From contig NZ_JAYKGW010000204.1 in assembly GCF_035285525.1 (NCBI RefSeq), positions 1 to 12,950 of the forward strand: a stretch of 12,950 nt of DNA. Reading direction: 5' to 3'. The notes beneath the pieces were generated by a model, which saw only the letters and a program-made list of their open reading frames with translations, was not told the origin of the DNA and made no database searches. The position numbers and the translations under genes were made by a program. This document shows, in pieces, positions 1 to 12,950 of this stretch. The first letter of the stretch is position 1. Every line of letters starts with the position of its first letter. This stretch comes from Okeania sp. Its GTDB lineage: Bacteria > Cyanobacteriota > Cyanobacteriia > Cyanobacteriales > Microcoleaceae.

Positions 1-570
1 TTGTTACTTCATTTCAATCTACACAAAGTTGTTAAAAGTTGGGTTTTGTTACTTCATTTCAATCTACACAAAGTTGTTAAAAGTTGGGTTTTGTTACTTC
101 ATTTCAATCTACACAAAGTTGTTAAAAGTTGGGTTTTGTTACTTCATTTCAATCTACACAAAGTTTTTATAAAGTTGGGTTTTGTTACTTCATTTCAATC
201 TACACAAAGTTGTTAAAAGTTGGTTTTTTTACCTCATTTCAATCTACACAAAGTTTTTATAAAGTTGGGTTTCGTTACTTCATTTCAATCTACACAAAGT
301 TTTTATAAAGTTGGGTTTTGTTACTTCATTTCAATCTACACAAAGTTGTCAAAAGTTGGGTTTTGTTATCTCAATTAAACTTACACAGAGTTGTCAAAAG
401 TTGGGTTTTGTTATCTCAATTAAACTTACACAGAGTTGTTAAAAGTTGGGTTTTGTTATCTCAATTAAACTTACACAGAGTTGTCAAAAGTTGGGTTTTG
501 TTATCTCAATTAAACTTACACAGAGTTGTCAAAAGTTGGGTTTTGTTATCTCAATTAAACTTACACAGAG
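1..570. repeat. Tandem array of 45/46-bp units (12 full copies plus 1 truncated copy), open at the window edge; candidate sopC/parS-like centromere
   Basis: Unit boundaries read from the sequence: 1, 46, 91, 136, 182, ~227, 272, 318, 363, 408, 453, 498, and a partial unit at 543-570. Units 1-8 are type A (TTGTTACTTCATTTCAATCTACACAAAGTTGTTAAAAGTTGGGTT), and some carry a 1-nt-longer TTTTTATAAAG variant. Units 9-13 are type B (TTGTTATCTCAATTAAACTTACACAGAGTTGTCAAAAGTTGGGTT). The array ends exactly at the stop codon (571-573) of the ParB-like gene. The repeat itself is certain. The centromere role is inferred from position only. Confidence 0.95.
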
Positions 571-1305
571 TCAGGATATATCTGGCCAGGAGTCAATAAT
601 TTTAATCATTCTTTTCTCTGCTAAACCGTCAATACGTTTAATAACATCACTAAAAGATTCAAAGGGTTCAAACTGTTTTTTATTTCGCTCTTTTTCAATA
701 TTATTTATTACTCTCTGACTTACTCCTGCTTTGCTTAACCTAGGACTTAGTTGAGCAAAAGACATAGTATTAAGAGCATCTAATAAGGGAGGTATTGGTT
801 CAGGAATTTTTCTTTCTAATTCTTTAATTCTTGCTTCTAATACTTGGTTTTTTGATGAAAGCTCTGCTTTAACTTCATTCATTATATTGTCTAATCTTGA
901 TTCCATATTAAGCAGACGAAAATCAAAATTTGATAAGCGAGATTCTCCGTTACTTGGTGCGGTAGTTTCTCTACCACTATCCGGTGAAGGTAGTGGAGTT
1001 TTTGGTTGAAGAGCTTCAGCTTGTTTTAAAACTAAATCTTCAATTTTTGATGATATTACTAAAGAATTAACCATTTCTGCTTGACGTGGATTTTTTTCTC
1101 TAGCTCTCACCGCAGCATAGTATTCTAATGCACCATCAATTAATTCATATTCTTCTATTCCAACCTGTTTTAATAGAAGTGGTTTTACTAATCCATCGCA
1201 CTCTAAAATCATATCGGCTAAATGTTCAATTTCATGTTCCGAAAAATTAGAACGAGACTGATTTGAAGTGATACTTTTTACATCGACTAAATAGAAGGAA
1301 ATCAT
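571..1305 (-). CDS. Atypical ParB-like protein: degenerate ParB/Srx N-terminal domain, coiled-coil linker and C-terminal ComEA-like tandem helix-hairpin-helix
   Basis: 244-aa ORF whose ATG overlaps the upstream gene's stop by 1 nt (TAATG at 1303-1307). The N-terminus VDVKSITSNQSRSNFSEHEIEHLADMILECDGLVKPLLLKQVGIEEYELIDGALEYYAAVRA follows the ParB N-domain pattern, but DGALEYY replaces the box II GERRxR arginines. The middle (RLSNFDFRLLNMESRLDNIMNEVKAELSSKNQVLEARIKELERK) looks coiled-coil. The C-terminus LNTMSFAQLSPRLSKAGVSQRVINNIEKERNKKQFEPFESFSDVIKRIDGLAEKRMIKII matches the ComEA (HhH)2 pattern. Confidence 0.8.
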   Translation of the reverse strand: MISFYLVDVKSITSNQSRSNFSEHEIEHLADMILECDGLVKPLLLKQVGIEEYELIDGALEYYAAVRAREKNPRQAEMVNSLVISSKIEDLVLKQAEALQPKTPLPSPDSGRETTAPSNGESRLSNFDFRLLNMESRLDNIMNEVKAELSSKNQVLEARIKELERKIPEPIPPLLDALNTMSFAQLSPRLSKAGVSQRVINNIEKERNKKQFEPFESFSDVIKRIDGLAEKRMIKIIDSWPDIS

Positions 1306-2780
1306 TAAATATTCTCCATTTTTTGTAGAACTTCTTCAGCTAATAATTCAAATTCATCAGCAGAGTCGTTAGCTGTCGCATCTTTATCTGAATACTTAAA
1401 TATAGATAAGGGATTAGGAATATCTAACTCCCCTACTTTGATCGTTTGATTTAAACATTTTGATAAAGCTGTTCTTTCTGAAATAATACTATTCATCAAA
1501 GGCAGTTCGTAACGTTCTGAAATCACTTTTGTTTGTCGAGAAAATGTGTGTTGCCTAAATTTAGAATTAGGGGAAATTTTAGAGGGAAGAACACCCATAA
1601 TTTTTAGAGAAGGCATTCTCATACCTTCCCGATATTCATTAACTTGTCTGACAAAATTTTTGACAGTAGGTAAGCCTTGATTTGCAAATGGTTTTAAATC
1701 AGAAGGAATTATCAAATAATCAGCAGTAATTAGAGGGATTTCGGCATAAATATCTCTAGATGGAGGAGTGTCAATAATTACTATATCATAATCATTTTCT
1801 ACTTTCTTTAGTTTAGTAATTAATCTGGATCTACTAACAGCAATTTTGGTTAGCTTGTCTTGATGCTCAATTAATTGAATGTGAGATGGAACTATATCTA
1901 ATTCTGGGTCGTTAAAAAATTCTGATTTCCTAGCTATGTCGCTAATAAAACCAAAGTCACCTGATTCTATTAGATGGTAAACATAACTGCTTCTAATATT
2001 ATCATTTTCTTCAAACTGAAATTTTACTAAACCAGTAGCAAATGTGGCGTTTGCCTGACTATCAAAATCTATAATGAGAACTTTTTTTCCTTTTTGTACT
2101 AGGGCAGCAGCTAAATTAACTACTGTTGTCGTTTTGCCTACTCCGCCTTTATTGTGATAAACAGCAATTACTTTCATAGAATTTCTCCTATTTTGATTAA
2201 TTGGATTATACTTGGTTTCAATGTTTATTAAATCTGCCTGATTTTCGAGAATATTACTAACAATTTCTTTTGGCTCAGATTGAGTAGCGATCGCCTCATT
2301 GACATTTACTTCTTTTTGTGGAATTTCCGATTTATTATAAACCACATTTTGACGTAAATATTCTCGACCTACTAATGCTTTAATTTCTTCTATTTTCTCA
2401 TCAACTTCAATTCCCAAACAATTAAACTCTAACTTAATATTATTTCCTTCTCTTTGATAAATCCTAATTTCTTTAGCATTAGTTAACAAGCCATATTTTA
2501 CATTCATGCTGGTTAAATAACGTCTAAATTTTCGTTGATGACGGTCTAAATTTTGTTTGGGACTTTTTGCCTCCATTACTAATGCTAAAGGAGAGTCTTC
2601 ATCCAAACGAAAAGGTAGTTCCTGGGCAGCAAATGATAAAAAGTCTAAGCGGATACTACCAAAGGTTACTTCTTGATGCCAATGTTCGATATCGTATCCT
2701 AATTTTGGTAGTAGATAACTAACAATTAGTTTGCTTTCTACTTCGCTTTCGTTACGACATAAATCTGGATTAAAATTCAA
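1305..2780 (-). CDS. Fusion protein: N-terminal HsdR_N-type PD-(D/E)xK domain plus C-terminal ParA/Soj/MinD-family partition ATPase
   Basis: 491-aa ORF with a TTG start at 2780. Residues ~10-110 (ESEVESKLIVSYLLPKLGY...IRLDF...LVMEAKSP...YLTSMNVKYGLLTNAKEIRIY) show the D...ExK core and trailing Y..tNG..y signature of type I restriction R-subunit N-terminal domains. Residues 202-491 carry the deviant Walker A with signature lysine (MKVIAVYHNKGGVGKTTT), then LIIDFDSQANAT and Walker B DIVIIDTPPS. An internal ATG at 2175-2177 (M202) is preceded by AGGAGA. Confidence 0.9.
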   Translation of the reverse strand: MNFNPDLCRNESEVESKLIVSYLLPKLGYDIEHWHQEVTFGSIRLDFLSFAAQELPFRLDEDSPLALVMEAKSPKQNLDRHQRKFRRYLTSMNVKYGLLTNAKEIRIYQREGNNIKLEFNCLGIEVDEKIEEIKALVGREYLRQNVVYNKSEIPQKEVNVNEAIATQSEPKEIVSNILENQADLINIETKYNPINQNRRNSMKVIAVYHNKGGVGKTTTVVNLAAALVQKGKKVLIIDFDSQANATFATGLVKFQFEENDNIRSSYVYHLIESGDFGFISDIARKSEFFNDPELDIVPSHIQLIEHQDKLTKIAVSRSRLITKLKKVENDYDIVIIDTPPSRDIYAEIPLITADYLIIPSDLKPFANQGLPTVKNFVRQVNEYREGMRMPSLKIMGVLPSKISPNSKFRQHTFSRQTKVISERYELPLMNSIISERTALSKCLNQTIKVGELDIPNPLSIFKYSDKDATANDSADEFELLAEEVLQKMENI

Positions 2781-2784
2781 GGTG

Positions 2785-2807
2785 ATTTCAGTTATCAGTT
2801 ATCAGTA
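2785..2807. repeat. STRR-like heptamer repeat (CAGTTAT x2.5; TACTGATAACTGATAACTGAAAT on the minus strand)
   Basis: ATTTCAGTTATCAGTTATCAGTA is read directly, ending 4 nt upstream of the TTG start of the ParA fusion. The 14-mer CTGATAACTGAAAT recurs on the plus strand at 7878-7891. Confidence 0.7.
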
Positions 2808-2817
2808 GAGAGTGAAC

Positions 2818-2835
2818 CTCCGACTTTAGTCGGAG
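2818..2835. other. Perfect 7-bp hairpin (CTCCGAC-TTTA-GTCGGAG) in the leader/promoter region of the ParA-fusion operon
   Basis: The inverted repeat is read directly. On the minus strand its 3' arm reads GTCGGAGG. Its function is unknown. Confidence 0.4.
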
Positions 2836-2985
2836 TTTTGAAATAGTGAGTTAAATATTTCTCTTGGTCGATTGGATATGGCGTTTTGCGGAGTGAAACG
2901 ACCGCTTTTTCATCCCCTTTTAAGGGGATACTTTAGACCTCATTTTTTGGTAATTATTTCTGAATTTTTAATTTTCTCCTTAATT

Positions 2986-3078
2986 AAAAAAGCAATCAGC
3001 ATTCAGCAGTCAGCAAGACTGTTTATTTCAAACGTAAATCTTGAGAAACTGATAGGTGATAGCTGACTGCTAATTGCT
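2986..3078 (-). terminator. Possible desA terminator: long imperfect hairpin followed by a T-run on the minus strand
   Basis: GCAGTCAGC (3006-3014) pairs with GCTGACTGC (3062-3070), and AGCAAT (2991-2996) pairs with ATTGCT (3073-3078). On the minus strand the structure is followed by TTTTT (complement of 2986-2990), and it begins about 20 nt past the desA stop. The loop is large (47 nt), so this is tentative. Confidence 0.3.
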
Positions 3079-3098
3079 ATTTAAAATTACTAAGAATA

Positions 3099-4151
3099 CT
3101 AAGAAACTTTCTGAGCATTGTACTCTTTAAAAGTCATATAAAACTTTTCTCGATCATACAAATGACACTTATCTGTTATCTCTTTCATTAAAGACCAAGA
3201 AAACTTAGTTTGATAAAGTTTATCTCCCCATTTATCCTTTAAAAATTGATATGCTTTTCTTAAATTATATGAAGGGATTCCTACAGAAACATGATGGGGA
3301 ATATGTACATTAATATCATGGCAAAGAAACTCTACCCAACGAGGATAATCACAATGTACTGTACCAAATAATTGAGCCTCTACTTCATTCCAGTTTTCTG
3401 CTGAAGTAAAAGGAATTTCTGGTACTGTGTGGTGAACAATAGTAAACGTACTCATCCAGAAGTGGTAAACTAACCAGGGCATTAACCAAAACTTGACCAA
3501 ACCCCACACACCAACTGTAGCTATTAACAAAGGAAAAGTGATCGCGCTAAACCCAACAATTACCAATGCAGAAAATTTAACATCTTTCCGATCCTGACCC
3601 TCAAATTTTCTCCAGTTAAAATGTATACCTGCCCAGTGAACAATAGAAGCTAACCACCAAAGTCTACCACGCATAAATCTATACACTAACTGCATAGGAG
3701 TACCAGCAACCTCATAATCTTCTGGATACCAAGGTTGCCAAGCATTATCTTCCCCCATCTTATTTGTATGTTTATGGTGATGATTATGGCCGATTCGCCA
3801 ACCATGAAAAGGATAAATTAAAGGCAAAAACATTAAGTGACCAACTAAATCATTGACCCAGCGACGGTTCGCAAAGGAACGATGACCGCAGTCATGGCCA
3901 ATTACAAAAAATCCTGTTAGTGCAGTGCCAGTGAAAATCCAGAATAGGGGCAATAAAAACCAAGGTGTAATTGTTAGTCCCCAATAACCTAAAACAACCA
4001 TAAAAACATTGGTTGTCACCATTGTCCATGTTTTCCATTTATCTTTAATGAAAACTTCGCGAGGTAGAGTTTTCACAATATCTTTTAGCTGTAGTTGGTC
4101 TTTCTGACCAGAATAATTTCCATGAACAGATTCTGCAATTGATACAGTCAT
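3099..4151 (-). CDS. desA: Delta-12 acyl-lipid (oleate) desaturase
   Basis: 350 aa with three histidine boxes: HDCGH, HNHHH and HIPHH. Long stretches match my recollection of Synechocystis DesA ([77 protein letters not shown]). The sequence is unlike omega-3 DesB, which has HDCGHGSF and differs elsewhere. Confidence 0.95.
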
Positions 4152-4207
4152 AAATTGTTTAAATTCCTGTTTTTCTTGATAGTTATGTATGTAGATTTAT
4201 GATTCCG

Positions 4208-4244
4208 AAAAAAACGCCAGCTCCACAACTTTGCTGGCGGTTTT
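4208..4244 (-). terminator. Rho-independent terminator-like hairpin (minus strand: AAAACCGCCAGC-loop-GCTGGCGTTTTTTT)
   Basis: CGCCAGC (4215-4221) pairs with GCTGGCG (4233-4239) around an 11-nt loop. It is flanked by A7 on the plus strand, which gives a T7 tail on the minus strand. It lies 220 nt downstream of the 84-aa ORF and only ~55 nt upstream of the desA ATG. Confidence 0.55.
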
Positions 4245-4464
4245 GACCACAGAAAATTTTTTACAGCTAATGCTCAGAACTAATAAAATTCAACGAATGT
4301 TAGTAAATTTTGTCCAAAACAGTGCTTTATGTAGCAAAACCTATCCTTTTATATCACAACCTTGTCTCTATCTAATTAAATAAATGATTTTTTTGGCTTT
4401 TGCTACTTCTTTTCTATTTGGTCAAATATTGCTATAATTTCATTCAAAAATTTTTTTGATTGAC

Positions 4465-4719
4465 TTATTTTTCAACAATTTGTGAAACTAAGTCTCTTTC
4501 TTTGATAGTTTGTAATTCTAATAAGAGAGTTTCTATTTCTGCTTCGAGATGAAGTAACTTAACTTGTTGATCGGTTTGATACAAAGACTTCATTTGTTTT
4601 AAGGTTCGGGTTTGATTGGTTAATTTTCCTGGACTGTTTACTTTTGTAGGAGTATCTGAACAAAGAGAAACTTTGGACAAAGTAGATGTGCTGTCAGAAA
4701 TCATTAAGTTACTAGCCAT
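4465..4719 (-). CDS. Hypothetical small protein with a C-terminal coiled-coil (84 aa)
   Basis: ATG-initiated ORF with a heptad-like tail (VKLLHLEAEIETLLLELQTIKERDL). I recognise no family and see only a weak SD. Coding status is uncertain. Confidence 0.35.
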   Translation of the reverse strand: MASNLMISDSTSTLSKVSLCSDTPTKVNSPGKLTNQTRTLKQMKSLYQTDQQVKLLHLEAEIETLLLELQTIKERDLVSQIVEK

Positions 4720-5071
4720 ATATACTCACTTAAATTCTTTTTATTTATTAAGATATACAACAAATTTAGCTGTTTAATCTTGATTAAATCAAAATTTAAC
4801 CTGATAAAATTATGGTTTCTAATTATTTAACAAATAATAAACTGTTATCATAAGTACGCAATGTGCAAATTTATAGGGAATAATCAGGGTTTCTGGAGCT
4901 TTTTCAGGAAGTAGGGGGTAGGGACATTGCATAGTCCGTACAGATATAAAGAGCCAAAAATCTGGTACTTTTTTCGCTCCTTAAATGCTACAGCCGTGAT
5001 TAATAATGTCAATGCTGCTATATTTAATCAGTCAGCCCTAATTAATTTTGCTGATGAACTTATTAGAGATG

Positions 5072-5214
5072 GGACTTACGCACGCGCAACGTATTTCTGT
5101 CATGGCGCGACTCGCAGCGCCAGCGACAGCGTTTCGCTCCGCGACATGAATGGGTCGCAGTCCCTCAGGATAGCAATCTCAAATTACCGAAACTCGTCCC
5201 CAATGCGTAAGTCC
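5072..5214. mobile_element. GC-rich ~143-bp element bounded by 11-bp terminal inverted repeats (MITE-like dispersed repeat or structured RNA)
   Basis: GGACTTACGCA (5072-5082) is the exact reverse complement of TGCGTAAGTCC (5204-5214). The interior is conspicuously GC-rich (GCGCGACTCGCAGCGCCAGCGACAGCGTTTCGCTCCGCGAC) within an AT-rich intergenic region. It contains a small AGCG-TTT-CGCT hairpin and repeated GTCGCAG/CTCGCAG motifs. Confidence 0.3.
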
Positions 5215-5509
5215 TGAGAGAGTTGCAATTTAATAAAATATTTTCTCATCCTGAAAGAGAAATAAATCTTCATCTAATCTATACTTATTCTTATATAGAG
5301 TAAACACAACACCTACTAAACATTGTTCATTGTTAATAGGTTTGAGTATCTAGAGGGATTTTAATATATCCCTAATATAAGTCTGGTCAACCAAGAAGAA
5401 AAGTCCTAATCCTGATTCATCCCGCTGCGAAGTATCAGCTTAATAATTCCCCTGGCTTTAGTCTAGAGACCGGAGAGTAGTAAAATTCAACAATTCAAAA
5501 CTTTTAAAG

Positions 5510-6601
5510 ATGACCTTAACATTGTCCCCTTATCAGTCAAAATTACAAGGTTGGCCGGGTTTAATAGAAGCATATAGGCCCTATCTACCCGTGACACAGG
5601 AAACTCCTGTGGTGACGCTGCAAGAAGGTAATACTCCTCTGATTCCTGTACCAACCATTGCCCATCAGGTAGGCAGAAATGTAGAAGTATTTGTGAAATA
5701 TGATGGCCTTAACCCCACGGGTAGTTTTAAAGATAGGGGTATGACTTTAGCCATATCTAAGGCCAAAGAAGCAGGAGCTAAAGCAGTAATCTGTGCTAGT
5801 ACAGGTAATACTTCTGCTTCCGCTGCGGCTTACGGGAGACGAGGTGGGATGCGAGCTTTTGTTTTAATTCCTGATGGTTATGTGGCTTTAGGAAAGTTGG
5901 CTCAAGCTTTGTTGTATGGAGCTGAAGTTTTGGCTATTAAAGGAAATTTTGACCAAGCTCTAGAAATAGTCCGGGAAGTGGCTAATAAGTATCCTGTGAC
6001 TTTGGTCAACTCACTTAACCCTTATCGTCTGGAAGGTCAAAAAACGGGGGCTTTTGAGGTGGTGGATGCTTTGGGAGATGCCCCAGATTGGTTATGTATT
6101 CCTGTGGGCAATGCTGGGAATATCACAGCATATTGGATGGGGTTTTGTCAATACCATAAAACTGGAAAATGCGATCGCTTACCAAAAATGATGGGCTTTC
6201 AGGCAGCAGGGTCAGCACCTATTGTCGAAGGCCATCCTATAGCTAATCCAGAAACAGTGGCCAGTGCTATTAGAATTGGTAATCCTGCTAGTTGGGAAAA
6301 GGCTATAGCTGCTCAAGAAGCGAGTCAGGGGAGTGTTAGTGCTGTGACTGATGAGGAAATATTGGAAGCTTATCGTTTATTGGCTTCTAATGAAGGAATT
6401 TTTTGTGAACCTGCTAGTGCTGCTTCTGTGGCTGGTTTATTGAAAGTTAAAGACCAAGTTCCTACAGGAGCAAAGATAGTTTGTGTACTTACTGGTCATG
6501 GTTTGAAGGACCCTGATGTAGCGATTAAACATAGCAATAACAAGTTTAAGCCGGGTATAGAACCAAGTATAGAGGCAGTTGCGAAAGTTATGGGGTTTTA
6601 A
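5510..6601 (+). CDS. thrC: Threonine synthase (PLP-dependent)
   Basis: 363 aa. It carries the PLP-lysine motif [11 protein letters not shown], plus [27 protein letters not shown] and [12 protein letters not shown]. Similarity to bacterial ThrC, for example B. subtilis from memory, runs end to end. Confidence 0.96.
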
Positions 6602-6693
6602 AGGAAGAAGGAGGAAGAAGGAGGGAGGAGGAGGAGGAAGAAGGAGGGAGGAGGAGGAAGAAGGAGGAAGAAGGAGGAAGAAGGAGGAAGGAG
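6600..6693 (+). repeat. 94-nt uninterrupted homopurine (GGA/GAA-type) tract
   Basis: Every base from 6600 to 6693 is A or G on the plus strand. The tract begins inside the thrC TAA stop codon (6599-6601). It contains a duplicated GGAAGAAGGAGGGAGGAGGAGGA block, tandem ~10-nt AGGAAGAAGG-like units and many AGGAGG cores. Confidence 0.95.
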
Positions 6694-6801
6694 TTTTGTA
6701 GACCCTATATATAGCTATGTTGGTAGAGGGTAAGGTTCCCGAAAAATTGGATACCAAACCCCTACGGGGCGTTAATTATACCGATACTAATGAATTTGAT
6801 A

Positions 6802-7482
6802 TTACTCATTTTTACTACTAGGTAAACGAGGTAATGGTTTTCCGCCCGGTGGTAGCTGGAGAGTATTGGTATAGGAGGTTTCCTGTAATTGGATTTTATT
6901 TTGAATTTGATTATTGATTTCTGTTTTTAGCTGACTCTCGGAAATATTCTCCAATGTTTGTGGTTTAGTTGCTTTTGCTTTGGCCAGAAGATTCACTGCA
7001 TCTGCCAAAGCATTTGTTAAACTTTTACGAGTATCTGCATGATTAGTTTGTTCTTGTTGAAGAGCTGTAGTTAATTTTTGGACTTTTGCCAGAGCGCGAC
7101 CATGTTCCTGGCTCACTTCAATAATTTTGGCCTTAAACTCATCTATAGTTTGTAAATGTTTGATTTCCTGTTCAATATTTGTTGTAGTTTCATTTTTATC
7201 CCTATCAACGAAGGATAAACCTTGTAATTTCTGAACTTTGGTTTTCAAGTTATCAATAGTTTCTTGGTTTTGTTGTGTTTCATTTCTGCGTTGTTGAGCT
7301 TCAGTATTATATAGTTGGCGCCATTTAGAAGCATTATTTTGAGCTAAATCTAATTCTGTTTGTAGTTCGACTATTTTTTGTTGAAGGGCTTTGATTTCAT
7401 TTAACCATGGAGTTATATCCTGTGTCATATCATAATTATAGGTGATAGGGTGTTCATTTAATTGGGTTATTTTTCCCTGCAA
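6802..7482 (-). CDS. Q/N-rich coiled-coil protein, function unknown
   Basis: 226-aa ORF from a TTG at 7482. An in-frame ATG at 7428 (MTQDITPWLNE) is an alternative start. Composition is heptad-like and rich in Q, E, K and L (IKALQQKIVELQTELDLAQNN, KVQKLTTALQQEQ). I recognise no enzymatic motif. Confidence 0.6.
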   Translation of the reverse strand: MQGKITQLNEHPITYNYDMTQDITPWLNEIKALQQKIVELQTELDLAQNNASKWRQLYNTEAQQRRNETQQNQETIDNLKTKVQKLQGLSFVDRDKNETTTNIEQEIKHLQTIDEFKAKIIEVSQEHGRALAKVQKLTTALQQEQTNHADTRKSLTNALADAVNLLAKAKATKPQTLENISESQLKTEINNQIQNKIQLQETSYTNTLQLPPGGKPLPRLPSSKNE

Positions 7483-7937
7483 GATTACCTTGACAATTTT
7501 AAGTTAAAAATTGATTATAGGTTCCCAAAAAGTGTGAGGTACAAAATTCTAGGTTTGAGGGAATACTTAACTGGGAAAAAGAGAAAAAATAACTGTATTT
7601 CAGGACTTTGAGAAACGCTATAATATTAACTTAATTAAGTTAGGCTACATTACTTATTTTATACTGAAATGCCAAATAATTTAGTGAAATTATAATAGTG
7701 TCAACGTTTTGAAGTAAGCGTTCTATATTTAGGGGTCATATCTTCGATGCAGAATGCGCTCGTATTGAACTTTTGAATGGATTAAGTAAGCCTTTTTTAA
7801 GTTTTAATTTTTGACAAAAAAATAAGGTCTCAAGTTTCCTCTCAGTCTTTTAAGTCTCTGACAAAAGCTGGGAGGTACTGATAACTGAAATGACACTTTT
7901 TCTTAGACTGCTATATATTACTATTTAGCTAAAAGCT

Positions 7938-9110
7938 ATGAGCTTTTTCCATTTTCTACGTCACTTTAATTCTGTAACATTGCAGGAATTTTCCAATCGG
8001 AAAAATAGGCAGCGATTTTTAGATATATTAATTCCAATTTCCCAAAATACTTATAGATTATTATTAACGATCCTCAAGTCAATAATTAAATATATATTAA
8101 GACGAATAATTCGCTTTTTTCAGTTCATTTATTATCTTAATTTATCAACTATTAAAGAAGTATTTAATTGTGCAGCAAAACAGAGATTATCCGGTTTATC
8201 TGCGGAGATGGCATATCATGCAATGCTTGCTTTATTTCCGGCTTTATTAACAATAATTGCTGCCATTGGAATATTTGACTCTTTAAGTTTAACCCTGTTT
8301 CAAATGGGAGGTTTACTAATAGATATACTTCCCAATCAAATACGGTTTTTAATTAGCTGGGCTGTGGATGAAATTCAGAGTTCTCCTAACAAAGAAATAT
8401 TTTCTTTTAGTTTTATTGTATCAATTTGGATATTTTCTAGTGTGGTTAGTTCTGCAATGGCAGCCCTTGATGCAATTCATCAAGTTCCGATTGAGGAAAA
8501 ACGACCTTTTTGGAAAGCAAAATTAGTTTCTTTAGGGTTAACTATTGGCAGTCTAATACTATTAATTATTGCTTCTACTTTAGTGTTAGTTAGTGACTTA
8601 ATTGTAGACATAATTGCTCGTCAAAGTTGTCTATTAGAGACTCTGCCTAACTGCCCTCCAGATCAAGTTGCTATTTGTTTATTTCAAGAACCTATAGATA
8701 ATTGTATTTTAAAGTCACAATTATTAGAAACTTGGAGTCAATTAAGATGGCCGATTACTTTAGGAATAGTATCAACAGCTTTTGCTTTTGTTTATCGTTT
8801 TGGTCCGAGTTATAGAAAGAAAGGTACGCCGATTATGCCTGGTGCAATTATATCAGCATTAATGTGGGCGGGAGCCTCTAATTTATTTCGTTTATATGTT
8901 TTCCATTTTGGCTTTAGTTTTGAGAACTATAACCGAATTTATGGAACTATTGGTACTTTTATTATTTTGTTATTGTGGTTATATATTAGTTCATTTGTAG
9001 TGTTAATTGGGGCACAATTAAATGTAACAGTAGGGGAGGAAATGGTTAAAAAAAAGGAAGTTATGCCGTTTCACAGAATTAAAAAGTCAAAATTCAAAAG
9101 TCAAAAATAA
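7938..9110 (+). CDS. YihY/virulence factor BrkB family membrane protein
   Basis: 390 aa. Family-typical segments are LSGLSAEMAYHAMLALFPALL, RPFWKAKLVSLGLT, YRFGPS, PGAIISALMWAGASNLFRLYV and YGTIGTFIILLLWLYISSFVVLIGAQLN, with multiple TM helices. The N-terminal ~55 aa may overextend the true start. Confidence 0.85.
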   Translation: MSFFHFLRHFNSVTLQEFSNRKNRQRFLDILIPISQNTYRLLLTILKSIIKYILRRIIRFFQFIYYLNLSTIKEVFNCAAKQRLSGLSAEMAYHAMLALFPALLTIIAAIGIFDSLSLTLFQMGGLLIDILPNQIRFLISWAVDEIQSSPNKEIFSFSFIVSIWIFSSVVSSAMAALDAIHQVPIEEKRPFWKAKLVSLGLTIGSLILLIIASTLVLVSDLIVDIIARQSCLLETLPNCPPDQVAICLFQEPIDNCILKSQLLETWSQLRWPITLGIVSTAFAFVYRFGPSYRKKGTPIMPGAIISALMWAGASNLFRLYVFHFGFSFENYNRIYGTIGTFIILLLWLYISSFVVLIGAQLNVTVGEEMVKKKEVMPFHRIKKSKFKSQK

Positions 9111-9182
9111 GATTTTATAGCTCGAAATAAAGGAAGAAAAAAGAAGGAATAAGGAAGGAAAATAATGGCATAAAAATTGGAG

Positions 9183-9374
9183 TTACCGTGGTCTTTGTAA
9201 GAGGCTAATTACACCAGTGGTTATGGAGAGAAATATTAAAAATAAAAGCACTCCTCCTGGTAAAAATGCTAGAATTTTCCATCCTCTCAGAAGCCAGAAT
9301 ATTAGGGTAATAATAATAAGATTGCCACAAATGTAAGAAAAATGGGGAATGGTAAAGTTAGAGTTTTGGCTCAC
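9183..9374 (-). CDS. Small predicted 2-TM membrane protein (63 aa)
   Basis: GTG start at 9374 preceded by GAGG 8 nt upstream (ATGAGGTCAAATTCGTG). There are two hydrophobic segments (ICGNLIIITLIFWLL and ILAFLPGGVLLFLIFLSITTGVISLL). It sits 44 nt downstream of the 316-aa gene on the same strand. Confidence 0.4.
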   Translation of the reverse strand: MSQNSNFTIPHFSYICGNLIIITLIFWLLRGWKILAFLPGGVLLFLIFLSITTGVISLLQRPR

Positions 9375-9418
9375 GAATTTGACCTCATATTTATATTGAT
9401 TAATAACAAACGTTGTGA

Positions 9419-10369
9419 CTATTGTAGCTTAAGACCTATATAACCAACGATTATTTTTCCAGGTCTTAACTCTTCAGAAAGATAAAGTCGCCAAGCACCA
9501 GGAGTCATTCGTAGATGCCAACTAAAAAGACGTTCTTTATTATCAGGACATTTAATAGTTAGTTGTTGTCTAAACTGTTTAATTCTGGAGTCACTTTCTG
9601 GGGTAGTTTTGCTTGGTAATAAATTTGGATTAAAAGTTCCTGTTTGCCAAGTTTGAGAGTATTTTTCTAGTTCCAATAATCGTTTTTTTACCTGTTGCAA
9701 AATTGGGTTGCCAGTGTTGAGGTTTTTTAGCTGTTGCTCTACTTGTTCACAGAAGATTAAATTAGCGAAAAATTCTTGTCTCTTTTCCCATAGTTTTTCT
9801 CCATCAATTTGCTTATCAAATAGTTGATTTTCTATATGGTTTTTAATCCATTCTGTATGTTGTTTAACATGACTGATTCGACTAGCATGAACAATTTTTT
9901 CCGAGTATTCAGTTAACTCTCCATTTTTATCTAATTCTGTTATCTGAAGTTCCAGAAAATCTGTATCCCATTGTGTTTCGGATAACAAACTAACTGTAAA
10001 AGAATCACTAATTAAAGCCAAACGAATACCCTCTGCTAACTTTCCTTGATGCCGAACTTCAGACAAATCAAATTTATCTTTAATTTGTGGGAGAGCATCC
10101 TCACAAAAAGGAACTTTTAAAGTTAGACTGCGGAAAAATCTACGCTCCTCTAAATCTACTGTTTTGTCGTTACGCCAACTTGCTATAGGATAATTACAAA
10201 CAAGTTCTATATTGTTAATATTGCTGTGAGTCCGAAGTATAGGTTTGACACCTAAACTTTTTGCTTTACGTAAAGTTTGAATTAACTCTGACATTAATTT
10301 TTGCGCTGTAGAAATATCAGCAACATGAGTCTGTAGAGAAAGTTCATTAAGCACCATTTCTAAATCCAT
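9419..10369 (-). CDS. Unknown 316-aa protein, third gene of the DUF262/ATPase operon; C-terminus resembles RelE/ParE/YhaV-fold toxins
   Basis: The ATG at 10369 lies 2 nt after the ATPase stop (TAA-AT-ATG). I recognise no family for residues 1-260. The C-terminal SWHLRMTPGAWRLYLSEELRPGKIIVGYIGLKLQ has the G-x-(W/Y)-R-h-h-(F/Y) ... hydrophobic strand ... G pattern that ends RelE/ParE-superfamily toxins. Confidence 0.8.
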   Translation of the reverse strand: MDLEMVLNELSLQTHVADISTAQKLMSELIQTLRKAKSLGVKPILRTHSNINNIELVCNYPIASWRNDKTVDLEERRFFRSLTLKVPFCEDALPQIKDKFDLSEVRHQGKLAEGIRLALISDSFTVSLLSETQWDTDFLELQITELDKNGELTEYSEKIVHASRISHVKQHTEWIKNHIENQLFDKQIDGEKLWEKRQEFFANLIFCEQVEQQLKNLNTGNPILQQVKKRLLELEKYSQTWQTGTFNPNLLPSKTTPESDSRIKQFRQQLTIKCPDNKERLFSWHLRMTPGAWRLYLSEELRPGKIIVGYIGLKLQ

Positions 10370-10371
10370 AT

Positions 10372-11481
10372 TTATTCTTCCCTGGGTTCTAAAAGTGCTT
10401 CTAAACTATTATCCCATTCATCAAAAAAACCTTCTGGCCATTCATCTATTCGCCCGTTTCGATCTATCTGGGGGGATATTATTTTAGTTATAAATTCTGT
10501 TCCTTGTTTTCGGCGGTCAAAATAATGTAATTGAACTTTTTCAGGATTAAATTTTCCTTTATAAACTGTTAATCTAATTCCATTTAAAACATGGTCGCTA
10601 TGAGTTTCAACTACAATTTGTACCCCACAACTAGCAGCAAGAGCTAATAATTCTCCCATTTTTGCTTGACCTTTTGGATGAAGATGTGCTTCAGGATTTT
10701 CTATTATAATTAAACTGTCTGGAGGGGATGAAAGAATAGCTACAATAATTGGTAAAGTATAGCTAATTCCAAATCCAACATTAGTAGAACGATAAGGATT
10801 ACTATCTCCATAATAATATTGAAGACTAATTAAATCTATATCTTGTTTAGGGTTTATTTGTAGCCGCGTACCAGGACTAATTTCTCCCATCCAAGCTTCA
10901 ACTTGTTCTCTTAAAATTAGGGAGTCTGCTTGTGGATGCCTTAAGCTAATATTTGGTATATTTTGGTTTTCATTTACAAATAAAAAATGAGCTGTATATT
11001 CTCCTTTAGTGCCTAATTTTTCTAGTTCTTGAACTTGGAAATCTGACATTTCTAAAAATAAACGCGGACCTAAACGTTCTGCTTGCAGATAGTGGAAGTT
11101 TTTCTTAAAAAGACTAGATTTATAAATATCTGAAGTCACAGGTGGTGAGGCAAGATTTAGAACATCTTTTTCTCGGTTGTAAGAAAAATTCCAAATTCCC
11201 CGAGTCCCATTTTCCCAGACAATTTCAAAACTAATAAAATCATCTTTTGCTCCTTCAAATAAAGCATCTTGAGCAGTGCCTATAGAAACTAATTCACCAT
11301 TGAGTGCTAAACCTTGATTTTTTAATAGTCCTTGTTGATAAGATTGACGCATTAAAAGTAATGCTTGTAAGACAGAAGATTTGCCTGTACTATTTAGACC
11401 AGAAAGTAAGGTTAGCGGTCTAAATGATAGAAGCTGGTTGGCAAAAGGTTTAAAATTTTTTAGATGTACTGAACTAATCAT
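10372..11481 (-). CDS. DUF3696-type ABC-like (AAA_15/AAA_21 class) ATPase
   Basis: 369 aa. Motifs are Walker A LLSGLNSTGKSSVLQAL, a signature-like region NVGFGISYTLPIIVAIL, Walker B with its following motif LIIIENPEAHLHP, and an H-loop VVETHSDHVLN. The C-terminal GRIDEWPEGFFDEWD tail is typical of the DUF3696 family as I recall it. Its ATG lies inside the upstream gene's last codons, giving an 8-nt overlap (ATGATTAG). Confidence 0.88.
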   Translation of the reverse strand: MISSVHLKNFKPFANQLLSFRPLTLLSGLNSTGKSSVLQALLLMRQSYQQGLLKNQGLALNGELVSIGTAQDALFEGAKDDFISFEIVWENGTRGIWNFSYNREKDVLNLASPPVTSDIYKSSLFKKNFHYLQAERLGPRLFLEMSDFQVQELEKLGTKGEYTAHFLFVNENQNIPNISLRHPQADSLILREQVEAWMGEISPGTRLQINPKQDIDLISLQYYYGDSNPYRSTNVGFGISYTLPIIVAILSSPPDSLIIIENPEAHLHPKGQAKMGELLALAASCGVQIVVETHSDHVLNGIRLTVYKGKFNPEKVQLHYFDRRKQGTEFITKIISPQIDRNGRIDEWPEGFFDEWDNSLEALLEPREE

Positions 11482-12628
11482 TTATAACTTCTTTGATAAT
11501 TTTTTCAATAGTTTCAAAACGATATTCTATCTTATCTTGAGCTTGAGAGATAGACTGGGAAAATTTTCTGTCTTTATCTACATATTCAGTAAATTTATCT
11601 ACTAAGTTTCGCTTCTGTACTTTAAGTTTTTGAGTCTGTCGAGAATTAAGCTGACTAATGTGAAATGACCATGTTTCAAATAAGGCTTTATTAACTGGAA
11701 ATTTTCTTTGCTTCTTAGGTTTCCTAAAAGCTTCGTCACCAAATATTTCTTGACAAATAATCATAGCATTTTTGAACTTATCTTTAAGTTGTTTAATTTC
11801 CGAATCAGATAAATCATTAATTTTTTTCATAGCATTATCTAAAAATTCTTCTCTGCCATCTCTAGCGTAATCTTGATAAGAATCAGATGTAAGCATCACT
11901 GCTAAAGCACCTAGTACAAATTCCCGATCATCCATACGTTTGATTCGTGATTCACCGAGCTGAATAACATTAGTAAATTCTGGAGATTTAGCAAGTTCAG
12001 CTAATAATTTTAGGACTTTACCAGGATTAAGAGCATGACGTATTTCTTGAGGAGTTAAACGTTCTCCTCCTGTGTTAATACGTTTAAAAATATTATACTT
12101 AACTTTAGCTGGCGTACCTGATGAAATTAGATATATAGTAACTTGAGTTTCTTCAATACGACGCTGGTATTTACGGTCTAAATCTTTATAGATTGTGCCA
12201 TTAAGTTCATTGCCCAAATATTCTAAACCAGTTAACCGTAAATTATTACCAATGAACTGTTTTAAAGCTGAAAGTCTTTGCAAACCATCTACTACTAACC
12301 AGTTTTCTTCATTAGTTCCATCAATATAAAAAGCTGGTAAAGGAATCCTAATAATAATAGATTCAATCAATCGACTTTTAACCTCATCATTCCAGATATC
12401 AGAATGACGCTGAAAATCTGGAGCTAAATCAAGAGCTTTTTCATTTATTCTTCTCACTAACTGTTCAATTGTAGGTTCTCTAGTAATAATATTAATTTTC
12501 TCTGGATCGTAGATTAAATTATCTTTTTCATATACTTCCTCTTCATCATTTTCTTCCTCTTGATATTTGCTATAATTTTCTTTACTACTCATAGATTTTA
12601 CTCCCATTATTTGATTTTGATTATACAT
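11474..12628 (-). CDS. DUF262 (ParB/Srx-fold, GmrSD-N-like) domain protein without a recognisable nuclease domain
   Basis: 384 aa. The DUF262 signature reads LDLAPDFQRHSDIWNDEVKSRLIESIIIRIPLPAFYI...WLVVDGLQRLSALKQF (FQR...W...LI.SI...P.P...DGxQRL). The C-terminal ~220 aa look helical, and I could not find a DUF1524/HNH-type His-Me motif. In-frame alternative starts are M8 and M13; M13 at 12592 has GGGAG 8 nt upstream. Confidence 0.88.
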   Translation of the reverse strand: MYNQNQIMGVKSMSSKENYSKYQEEENDEEEVYEKDNLIYDPEKINIITREPTIEQLVRRINEKALDLAPDFQRHSDIWNDEVKSRLIESIIIRIPLPAFYIDGTNEENWLVVDGLQRLSALKQFIGNNLRLTGLEYLGNELNGTIYKDLDRKYQRRIEETQVTIYLISSGTPAKVKYNIFKRINTGGERLTPQEIRHALNPGKVLKLLAELAKSPEFTNVIQLGESRIKRMDDREFVLGALAVMLTSDSYQDYARDGREEFLDNAMKKINDLSDSEIKQLKDKFKNAMIICQEIFGDEAFRKPKKQRKFPVNKALFETWSFHISQLNSRQTQKLKVQKRNLVDKFTEYVDKDRKFSQSISQAQDKIEYRFETIEKIIKEVIND

Positions 12629-12665
12629 CTGAGATTAGAAGAAATTAATAACTTTATATTCAAAA

Positions 12666-12694
12666 TTGACAACTATTATAAATAAGTATATCAT
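12666..12694 (+). promoter_or_regulatory. Sigma70-like promoter candidate (TTGACA, 17-nt spacer, TATCAT) pointing away from the DUF262 operon
   Basis: TTGACA at 12666-12671 and TATCAT at 12689-12694 with a 17-nt spacer. It could drive the partial plus-strand ORF at 12867. The match is by sequence only, in very AT-rich DNA. Confidence 0.3.
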
Positions 12695-12866
12695 CAAATA
12701 CTGTACCTAATTTTTCCTATTTATATTGACCTTAGTTTATCAATTTATGGATATCAGCGCTCCCTAACCAAAAAATAATTATGACAAAAAGTTATGTGTA
12801 GATTATACTAATCAATTAATCCTCCTAATACTTATTTCTATTGTTAGAGAAAATTTTGAGGAAAAA

Positions 12867-12950
12867 ATGCTAAGCATTGAATTTGAAGACTATTTATGTT
12901 TAGATAAATTATCAATGTCTGAATTAGAGCGATCGCTTACTAAAAAAAAT
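12867..12950 (+). CDS. Possible 5' end of a plus-strand gene running off the window (first 28 codons: MLSIEFEDYLCLDKLSMSELERSLTKKN)
   Basis: The ATG at 12867 is preceded by GAGGAAAAA (SD-like). The frame stays open to the window end. It is too short to classify. Confidence 0.3.
   Translation, partial: MLSIEFEDYLCLDKLSMSELERSLTKKN

Follow-up and report, generated by a model that had tools for sequence, protein, structure and literature searches.

The locus described here raises the question of whether three closely packed genes of a marine filamentous cyanobacterium form a defence system that lacks a name, or belong to one that has been described already. The genes lie on the minus strand of a 12,950-nt stretch of DNA from Okeania sp. 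(NCBI RefSeq assembly GCF_035285525.1, contig NZ_JAYKGW010000204.1, positions 1 to 12,950 of the forward strand), called here the window, and comprise gene 1 (11474-12628, 384 amino acids, aa), gene 2 (10372-11481, 369 aa), and gene 3 (9419-10369, 316 aa), the coordinates of all open reading frames (ORFs) following the ORF table and the sequence. Downstream of them, on the same strand, there is a small membrane ORF of 63 aa with a GTG start (9183-9374). An initial annotation, made from the sequence alone, described these genes as a candidate uncharacterised defence operon, and the gene geometry it gave is exact: the ATG of gene 2 is situated inside ATGATTAG, which results in an 8-nt overlap with gene 1, genes 2 and 3 are separated by 2 nt (TAA-AT-ATG), and a gap of 44 nt precedes the small ORF. 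Such spacing suggests translational coupling of the trio.

The locus is very probably a Type I Menshen anti-phage system (nsnA-nsnB-nsnC) with all its genes intact, carried on the chromosome of a filamentous cyanobacterium of the Okeania/Trichodesmium type. The protein families were assigned by PADLOC-DB and Pfam profile scans of the three proteins, and in PADLOC each of them matched a Menshen model over practically its entire length: gene 1 the NsnA model (1.1e-130, residues 19-383 on positions 21-384 of 385), gene 2 the NsnB model (1.7e-131, residues 1-365 on positions 1-344 of 345), and gene 3 the NsnC model PDLC03879 (1e-105, residues 1-316 on positions 1-304 of 305) together with 12 further NsnC models. 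The next-best families were far lower, PD-T4-2_A for gene 1 (1.3e-40) and HEC-03B, AriA, and GajA for gene 2 (1e-38 to 1e-12). The order nsnA-nsnB-nsnC, with the genes adjacent and co-oriented, is the same in eight related loci. Menshen was named by Millman et al. 2022, and the system of Solibacillus silvestris protects against the phages T2, T4, T6, and Fado (PMC12065111); mutation or deletion of its DUF262 gene abolishes the protection (PMC10952713). In the survey of Li et al. 2025, 1997 Menshen loci from at least 27 phyla were collected, 8.16% of them cyanobacterial (PMC12065111).

The defence function proposed by the initial annotation thus agrees with the full-length PADLOC matches, and so does its assignment of domains with Pfam (DUF262 in gene 1, an ABC/AAA_15-type ATPase with DUF3696 in gene 2, gene 3 an orphan), while its view that the combination corresponds to no named system has to be abandoned, since PADLOC maps the trio to Menshen (1e-105 to 1e-131), an outcome which that annotation itself had named as speaking against it. 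A new, unnamed three-gene system merely sharing domains with known ones would fit the lack of a Pfam or NCBIfam family for gene 3 and the label "hypothetical protein" borne by its NCBI homologues, but it is very unlikely, as curated NsnA, NsnB, and NsnC models are matched end to end at 1e-105 or better by all three proteins, and the architecture, motifs, and gene order are those of the published description of Menshen, cyanobacterial loci included. The trio is not a new defence system but a known one, named, experimentally validated, and recently surveyed also in cyanobacteria. The value of the assignment lies in annotation: the names nsnA, nsnB, and nsnC can be given to the window genes and also to those homologues from Okeania, Trichodesmium, Oxynema, Fischerella, and others that have so far been labelled "hypothetical protein". 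Beyond that its significance is small, and the locus offers no special handle on the general mechanism of Menshen.

The window system resembles the Menshen archetype, that of S. silvestris StLB046, in having the same three genes in the same order, the same architecture of NsnA and NsnB, and a two-domain NsnC with a RelE/YafQ-like C-terminus; it differs in its host, a marine filamentous cyanobacterium, and in occupying a fixed syntenic chromosomal site. In NsnA a single Pfam domain is recognized, GmrSD_N/DUF262 (6e-21, residues 54-199), and ahead of it there are about 50 acidic, low-complexity residues and nothing more. Since Type I Menshen is defined by an NsnA without an extra N-terminal domain (PMC12065111), the window copy is of Type I. 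The motifs QRHSDIW (residues 73-79), DGLQR (114-118), and FKRIN (181-185) are the counterparts of the published NsnA signatures QRxxxW, DGxQR, and FxxxN, which are accompanied by a C-terminal ParBDB region (PMC12065111). NsnA is therefore predicted to be the Menshen sensor, composed of a ParB-like DUF262 NTPase and a C-terminal ParBDB-type region.

DUF262 is common to GmrSD, SspE, and BrxU, in which, as in NsnA, a ParB-like NTPase with the DGxQR motif is followed by a helical DNA-binding region, and a DNA-sensing role is presumed. The A subunit of PD-T4-2 (Vassallo et al. 2022) is a DUF262 protein as well, with homology to NsnA along almost the entire length, and besides PD-T4-2_A (1.3e-40) NsnA matches, more weakly, a PADLOC model of a type II restriction endonuclease (8e-14). 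These similarities could speak for another DUF262 system, PD-T4-2-like or a split modification-dependent restriction enzyme of the GmrSD type. Such an identity is barely conceivable, however, as the NsnA score exceeds that of PD-T4-2_A by about 300 bits and the partner proteins are NsnB and NsnC. Moreover, GmrSD, SspE, and BrxU contain a DUF262-DUF1524 fusion, whereas the DUF1524 His-Me nuclease gave no Pfam match at E <= 0.1 in any of the three window proteins, in which the effector would be a separate predicted RNase linked to the sensor via an ABC ATPase.

This link, NsnB, is predicted to be an ABC-type ATPase with a C-terminal DUF3696 helix, acting as a transducer that holds NsnC. Its Pfam matches are AAA_15 (3e-24), AAA_21 (1e-20), and DUF3696 (4e-19), and the published NsnB signatures, i.e., Walker A, a Walker B ending in EN (not DE), GxG, and a His switch (PMC12065111), are represented by GLNSTGKS (residues 28-35), LIIIEN (257-262), GFG (236-238), and THS (293-295), the Walker B thus showing the EN typical of NsnB. 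Septu (PtuA/B), PARIS (AriA/B), and Gabija (GajA/B) likewise employ an ABC ATPase of the OLD/AAA_15 type to hold or regulate a nuclease effector, and NsnB weakly matches the PADLOC models of AriA, GajA, and PtuA (1e-27 to 1e-12). The system of the window differs from them in the DUF3696 tail of NsnB and in its separate DUF262 sensor, and neither gene 1 nor gene 3 matched the models of the partners encoded in those systems (the HNH protein PtuB, the Toprim proteins AriB and GajA, and the helicase GajB).

The third protein, NsnC, has no sequence match in Pfam, NCBIfam, or PDB when taken as a whole, in agreement with the statement that its domains were previously uncharacterised (PMC12065111). 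Pfam scans of both its halves and of 20 C-terminal homologues, and a search of all PDB sequences with a 30-sequence profile, returned sub-threshold noise alone (YtzH, Rax2_2, an ARIH1 helix). The structural models were more informative. The AlphaFold2 model of full-length NsnC (pLDDT 89) contains an alpha/beta N-terminal domain, a region that is also spanned by the PADLOC NsnC match; a Foldseek search of PDB with this model gave nothing significant, RelE appearing at rank 9. The C-terminal half (residues 190-316; 9422-9802, minus strand), a helical linker and the domain that follows it, was modelled separately with a pLDDT of 93.9 and a pTM of 0.87, and its list of PDB matches was dominated by toxins of the RelE, YoeB, ParE-type, PrpT, PfiT, and HigB kinds, among them 2kc8 (probability 0.94), 4fxe_E (probability 0.96, TMt 0.67), and 3oei_C (TMt 0.73). 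Because this list is coherent and the protein belongs to the NsnC profile family, a RelE/YoeB-like (BECR) fold of the C-terminal domain, predicted to be an RNase, is supported by the modelling. What the initial annotation called a toxin-like tail of gene 3 has its counterpart in this fold. NsnC is thus predicted to be the effector of Menshen, its alpha/beta domain taking the position of inPIN at the N-terminus and its RelE-like domain lying at the C-terminus; in the majority of Menshen systems the effector domain of NsnC is an RNase of the BECR superfamily, PB-BECR1 with its H-R-H triad (PMC12065111).

With the type II toxins RelE, YoeB, and YafQ (BECR) the modelled C-terminal domain would share the fold and a catalytic constellation of the His/Arg type located on the beta-sheet. 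It differs from them in the absence of detectable sequence similarity, in being fused to an N-terminal domain of about 190 residues, and in having no antitoxin gene, control by NsnB being predicted instead. In an alignment of 30 NsnC homologues of 45% or more identity, C274, D276, H285, W293, and R294 are invariant (30/30). H161, H167, and H171, lying at the end of the N-terminal domain (9857-9889 in the window), a supposedly "inactive" PIN, are invariant in all 30 sequences as well.

The mode of action proposed for the window system follows the model of Li et al. 2025 (PMC12065111). NsnA would bind invading, possibly modified, phage DNA by means of its ParB-like DUF262 NTPase and the C-terminal DNA-binding domain, and in the DNA-bound form would stimulate the ABC ATPase of NsnB. 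NsnB, predicted to form a GajA-like tetramer, would use paired DUF3696 helices to clamp NsnC by its N-terminal domain until binding or hydrolysis of ATP leads to the release or allosteric activation of NsnC, whose RelE-like (BECR) domain may then cleave RNA, either phage transcripts or host RNA, and stop the infection. Published AlphaFold 3 models comprise the GajA-like NsnB tetramer and an NsnB4-NsnC2 complex with the effector bound as in Septu and PARIS (PMC12065111).

A survey of the neighbourhoods of NsnC homologues, suggested in the initial annotation, revealed co-conservation of the partner genes. There are 290 detectable NsnC homologues, the named ones nearly all cyanobacterial, and the A-B-C order with tight spacing is found at five different genomic sites, those of Oxynema, Fischerella, two metagenome contigs, and Okeania/Trichodesmium. 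In Oxynema the trio is flanked by a NUDIX regulator gene and DUF4178/spermidine synthase, in Fischerella by MTHFR and a FitA/PIN toxin-antitoxin pair. On one of the metagenome contigs (L061, 1798-12930) the trio, with an NsnC of 45% identity, is located in a BREX-like island, between the gene of a 951-aa PglX-type N6_N4 methyltransferase and SNF2-helicase/PglZ genes, which matches the association of Menshen with BREX and restriction-modification systems (PMC12065111); on the other (L062) it lies beside Uma2 and HicAB genes. As the same trio occurs in unrelated surroundings, it appears to behave as a mobile defence cassette.

Within the Okeania/Trichodesmium clade, the Menshen site is fixed. 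Synteny with Okeania SIO3H1 extends over the whole length of the window (ParB, ParA, desaturase, thrC, coiled-coil protein, BrkB, small ORF, nsnC-B-A), and over the sampled region it is seen also with Okeania SIO2F4 and a Trichodesmium metagenome-assembled genome (MAG). Past nsnA, GHL10 follows in all three of them; in the Trichodesmium MAG and in SIO3H1 the next gene is CobN. Positions 6736-12848 of the window recur with 100% identity on a Logan contig (SRR19514071). Among more distant Oscillatoriales, Laspinema, Oscillatoria, and Phormidium retain the block desaturase-thrC-coiled coil-yihY-small ORF, and at their loci no match to NsnB or NsnC was found, NsnA having no more than two DUF262 matches, both weak and distant. 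The comparison of gene content therefore indicates that an ancestor of the Okeania/Trichodesmium group acquired Menshen on the far side of the small ORF, and the idea of the initial annotation that an accessory cassette had been placed next to housekeeping genes is judged right. As for signs of mobility, a search for tRNA genes at the locus and an Rfam scan gave no match, there is no integrase in the window, and no anomaly in G+C content was detected (0.31-0.35 across the cassette versus 0.30-0.33 in the flanks). A 15-nt imperfect direct repeat (9385-9399 and 12715-12729, TCATATTTATATTGA and TCCTATTTATATTGA) exactly brackets the three-gene cassette. Roughly estimated, a comparison of all word pairs in 4 kb of AT-rich DNA should yield about one pair of this kind, and the repeat is not preserved at the loci of Trichodesmium and Okeania. 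It was rejected as a target-site duplication and is probably due to chance or to similar AT-rich promoter-like boxes.

The three genes are full length and intact both in the window, where the NTPase motifs of NsnA and the ATPase motifs of NsnB are preserved, and in Okeania SIO2F4. Pairwise ratios of nonsynonymous to synonymous substitution rates (dN/dS) between these two copies are 0.19 for nsnA, 0.15 for nsnB, and 0.33 for nsnC (0.23 for yihY), so all three proteins are under purifying selection. The situation is different in two other relatives. In the Trichodesmium MAG nsnB (positions 6889-7998 of locus L001) is a pseudogene with in-frame stops at codons 97 and 144 and a Walker A altered to GKF, and in Okeania SIO3H1 (positions 8495-9998 of locus L063) nsnB is fragmented and nsnA cut to 301 aa; nsnC is full length in both. 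Loss of the system is under way in some lineages. In SIO2F4 (positions 7400-8360 of locus L064), two or three tandem repeats of the last ca. 330 nt of nsnC, its effector half, follow the intact gene on both sides of a run of N; either they arose as an artefact of scaffolding, or the effector-domain cassette is truly duplicated.

A broken nsnB in the Trichodesmium MAG, a truncated nsnA with a fragmented nsnB in SIO3H1, both at the same syntenic site, and the lack of any other defence gene next to Menshen in the window are what would be expected if the locus were Menshen by descent but had turned into a relic in decay, or into a selfish module that carries a toxin and confers no phage protection. 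This is an unlikely course of events for the window copy, whose ORFs are all full length with intact catalytic motifs, and the intact copy in SIO2F4 together with the dN/dS values of 0.15-0.33 points to continued selection on the proteins. An intact Menshen copy in a genome whose sisters hold decayed ones provides a natural intact-versus-broken comparison, of modest value for the study of cyanophage defence in bloom-forming marine diazotrophs.

Several points weigh against the identification of the locus as a working Menshen system, or against details of it. Phage resistance has been demonstrated for the S. silvestris Menshen alone. As nsnB has decayed at the same site in two relatives, the system is not selected for throughout the lineage. 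The mechanistic steps past the identity of NsnABC are drawn from structure prediction and analogy, and in the published model the route of signalling from NsnA to NsnB could not be predicted (PMC12065111). As regards the individual proteins, motif I of NsnA (QRHSDIW) has four spacer residues, i.e., QRxxxxW, versus three in the published QRxxxW; full-length NsnC gave no PIN match in the Foldseek search of PDB, as opposed to the inPIN expected at its N-terminus; and the E-values of the RelE-like matches, 0.04-0.07 for the top ones, are not significant alone. Finally, the third position of the triad, His in the published H-R-H, is occupied by Lys314 in the window and in 23 of the 30 aligned homologues, and the window protein, unlike the archetype, ends two residues further on (GYIGLKLQ; residues 250-316 correspond to 9422-9622). 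The remaining 7 of the 30, cyanobacterial homologues forming a sister subclade, have His at this position and a tail longer by about seven residues.

It is possible, though rather doubtful, that K314 and the lost C-terminal tail mark a distinct RNase subtype, with another cleavage chemistry or target, and that the fixed locus with its repeated nsnB decay reflects lineage-specific gain and loss driven by cyanophages. Even if true, neither the NsnC subtype nor such dynamics would make a new kind of system. The His-to-Lys variant of the active site may be of use in studies of the RNase activity of NsnC.

The 63-aa ORF deserves separate consideration, since the stretch covered by the initial annotation (9183-12628) takes it in. 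It lies on the same strand 44 nt downstream of nsnC, and no terminator-like site was found between the two, so a four-gene system with the membrane protein as a fourth component, e.g., a membrane effector or an immunity protein, could be envisaged. Such a system is scarcely credible: the ORF accompanies yihY/BrkB at loci without a match to NsnB or NsnC, and it was not detected beside nsnC in four loci elsewhere (Oxynema, Fischerella, L061, and L062). In the Trichodesmium and Okeania loci its identity is 73-86%, while its distance from nsnC, 44 nt in the window, is ca. 260-1000 nt in the relatives; in Trichodesmium, where it begins with ATG rather than the GTG of the window copy, an insertion of ca. 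215 nt places it 258 nt from nsnC. In Laspinema, Oscillatoria, and Phormidium, copies of 46-57% identity follow yihY closely on its downstream side and are encoded on the other strand, and the ORF belongs to a conserved block desaturase - thrC - coiled-coil protein - yihY/BrkB - small ORF. Because it is found with yihY in genomes without Menshen and is missing beside nsnC elsewhere, the comparison of loci indicates that this two-helix membrane ORF is a real gene, but an unrelated neighbour and no part of Menshen. It represents an unannotated small-protein family, a partner of yihY/BrkB across Oscillatoriales (loci L007-L014 and L034).

The start of nsnA can be placed at 12628, 12607, or 12592. 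The last of these, giving a protein of 372 aa, is probably the true one, because a Shine-Dalgarno-like GGGAG (12601-12605) precedes the ATG at 12592 by 8 nt, a TATAAT at 12620-12625 is kept together with its flanking bases in the Trichodesmium locus, and the nsnA frame from the first ATG is broken there. The region upstream of nsnA (12593-12730, minus strand) may thus comprise a putative promoter and leader; a scan with consensus sequences found no minus-strand promoter upstream of nsnA at the scan threshold. The start of nsnC at 10369 is supported by the conservation of its N-terminal MDLEM in nearly all 30 aligned homologues.

Other features of the window lie outside the Menshen genes. At its right end, a short open frame on the plus strand (12867-12950, MLSIEFEDYLCLDKLSMSELERSLTKKN...) runs out of the window; it contains an HIP1 site, GCGATCGC, and in the Trichodesmium locus the corresponding DNA, conserved in part, lies between genes. 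The frame is probably not a gene. Directly past the thrC stop there is a purine-rich AGG/AGGAAGAAGG microsatellite (6602-6693), which gives rise to a GC-skew spike of 0.5 and a spurious antisense ORF of 106 aa. The segment 571-2780 of the minus strand codes for two proteins. One, of 491 aa, has an AAA_31/ParA ATPase and a weak HSDR_N_2-like N-terminus (4.5e-5, under the Pfam cutoff), and its ATPase also shows a weak PADLOC match to the candidate PDC-M28B (4.5e-11); its gene overlaps by 1 nt that of a 244-aa ParB_N-like protein, and the pair is syntenic in Okeania SIO3H1. About 20 nt past the stop of the ParB_N-like ORF (571-1305, minus strand), positions 1-548 are occupied by a 45-bp tandem repeat of 12.1 copies with 94% matches, in which a period of 136 bp can also be read.

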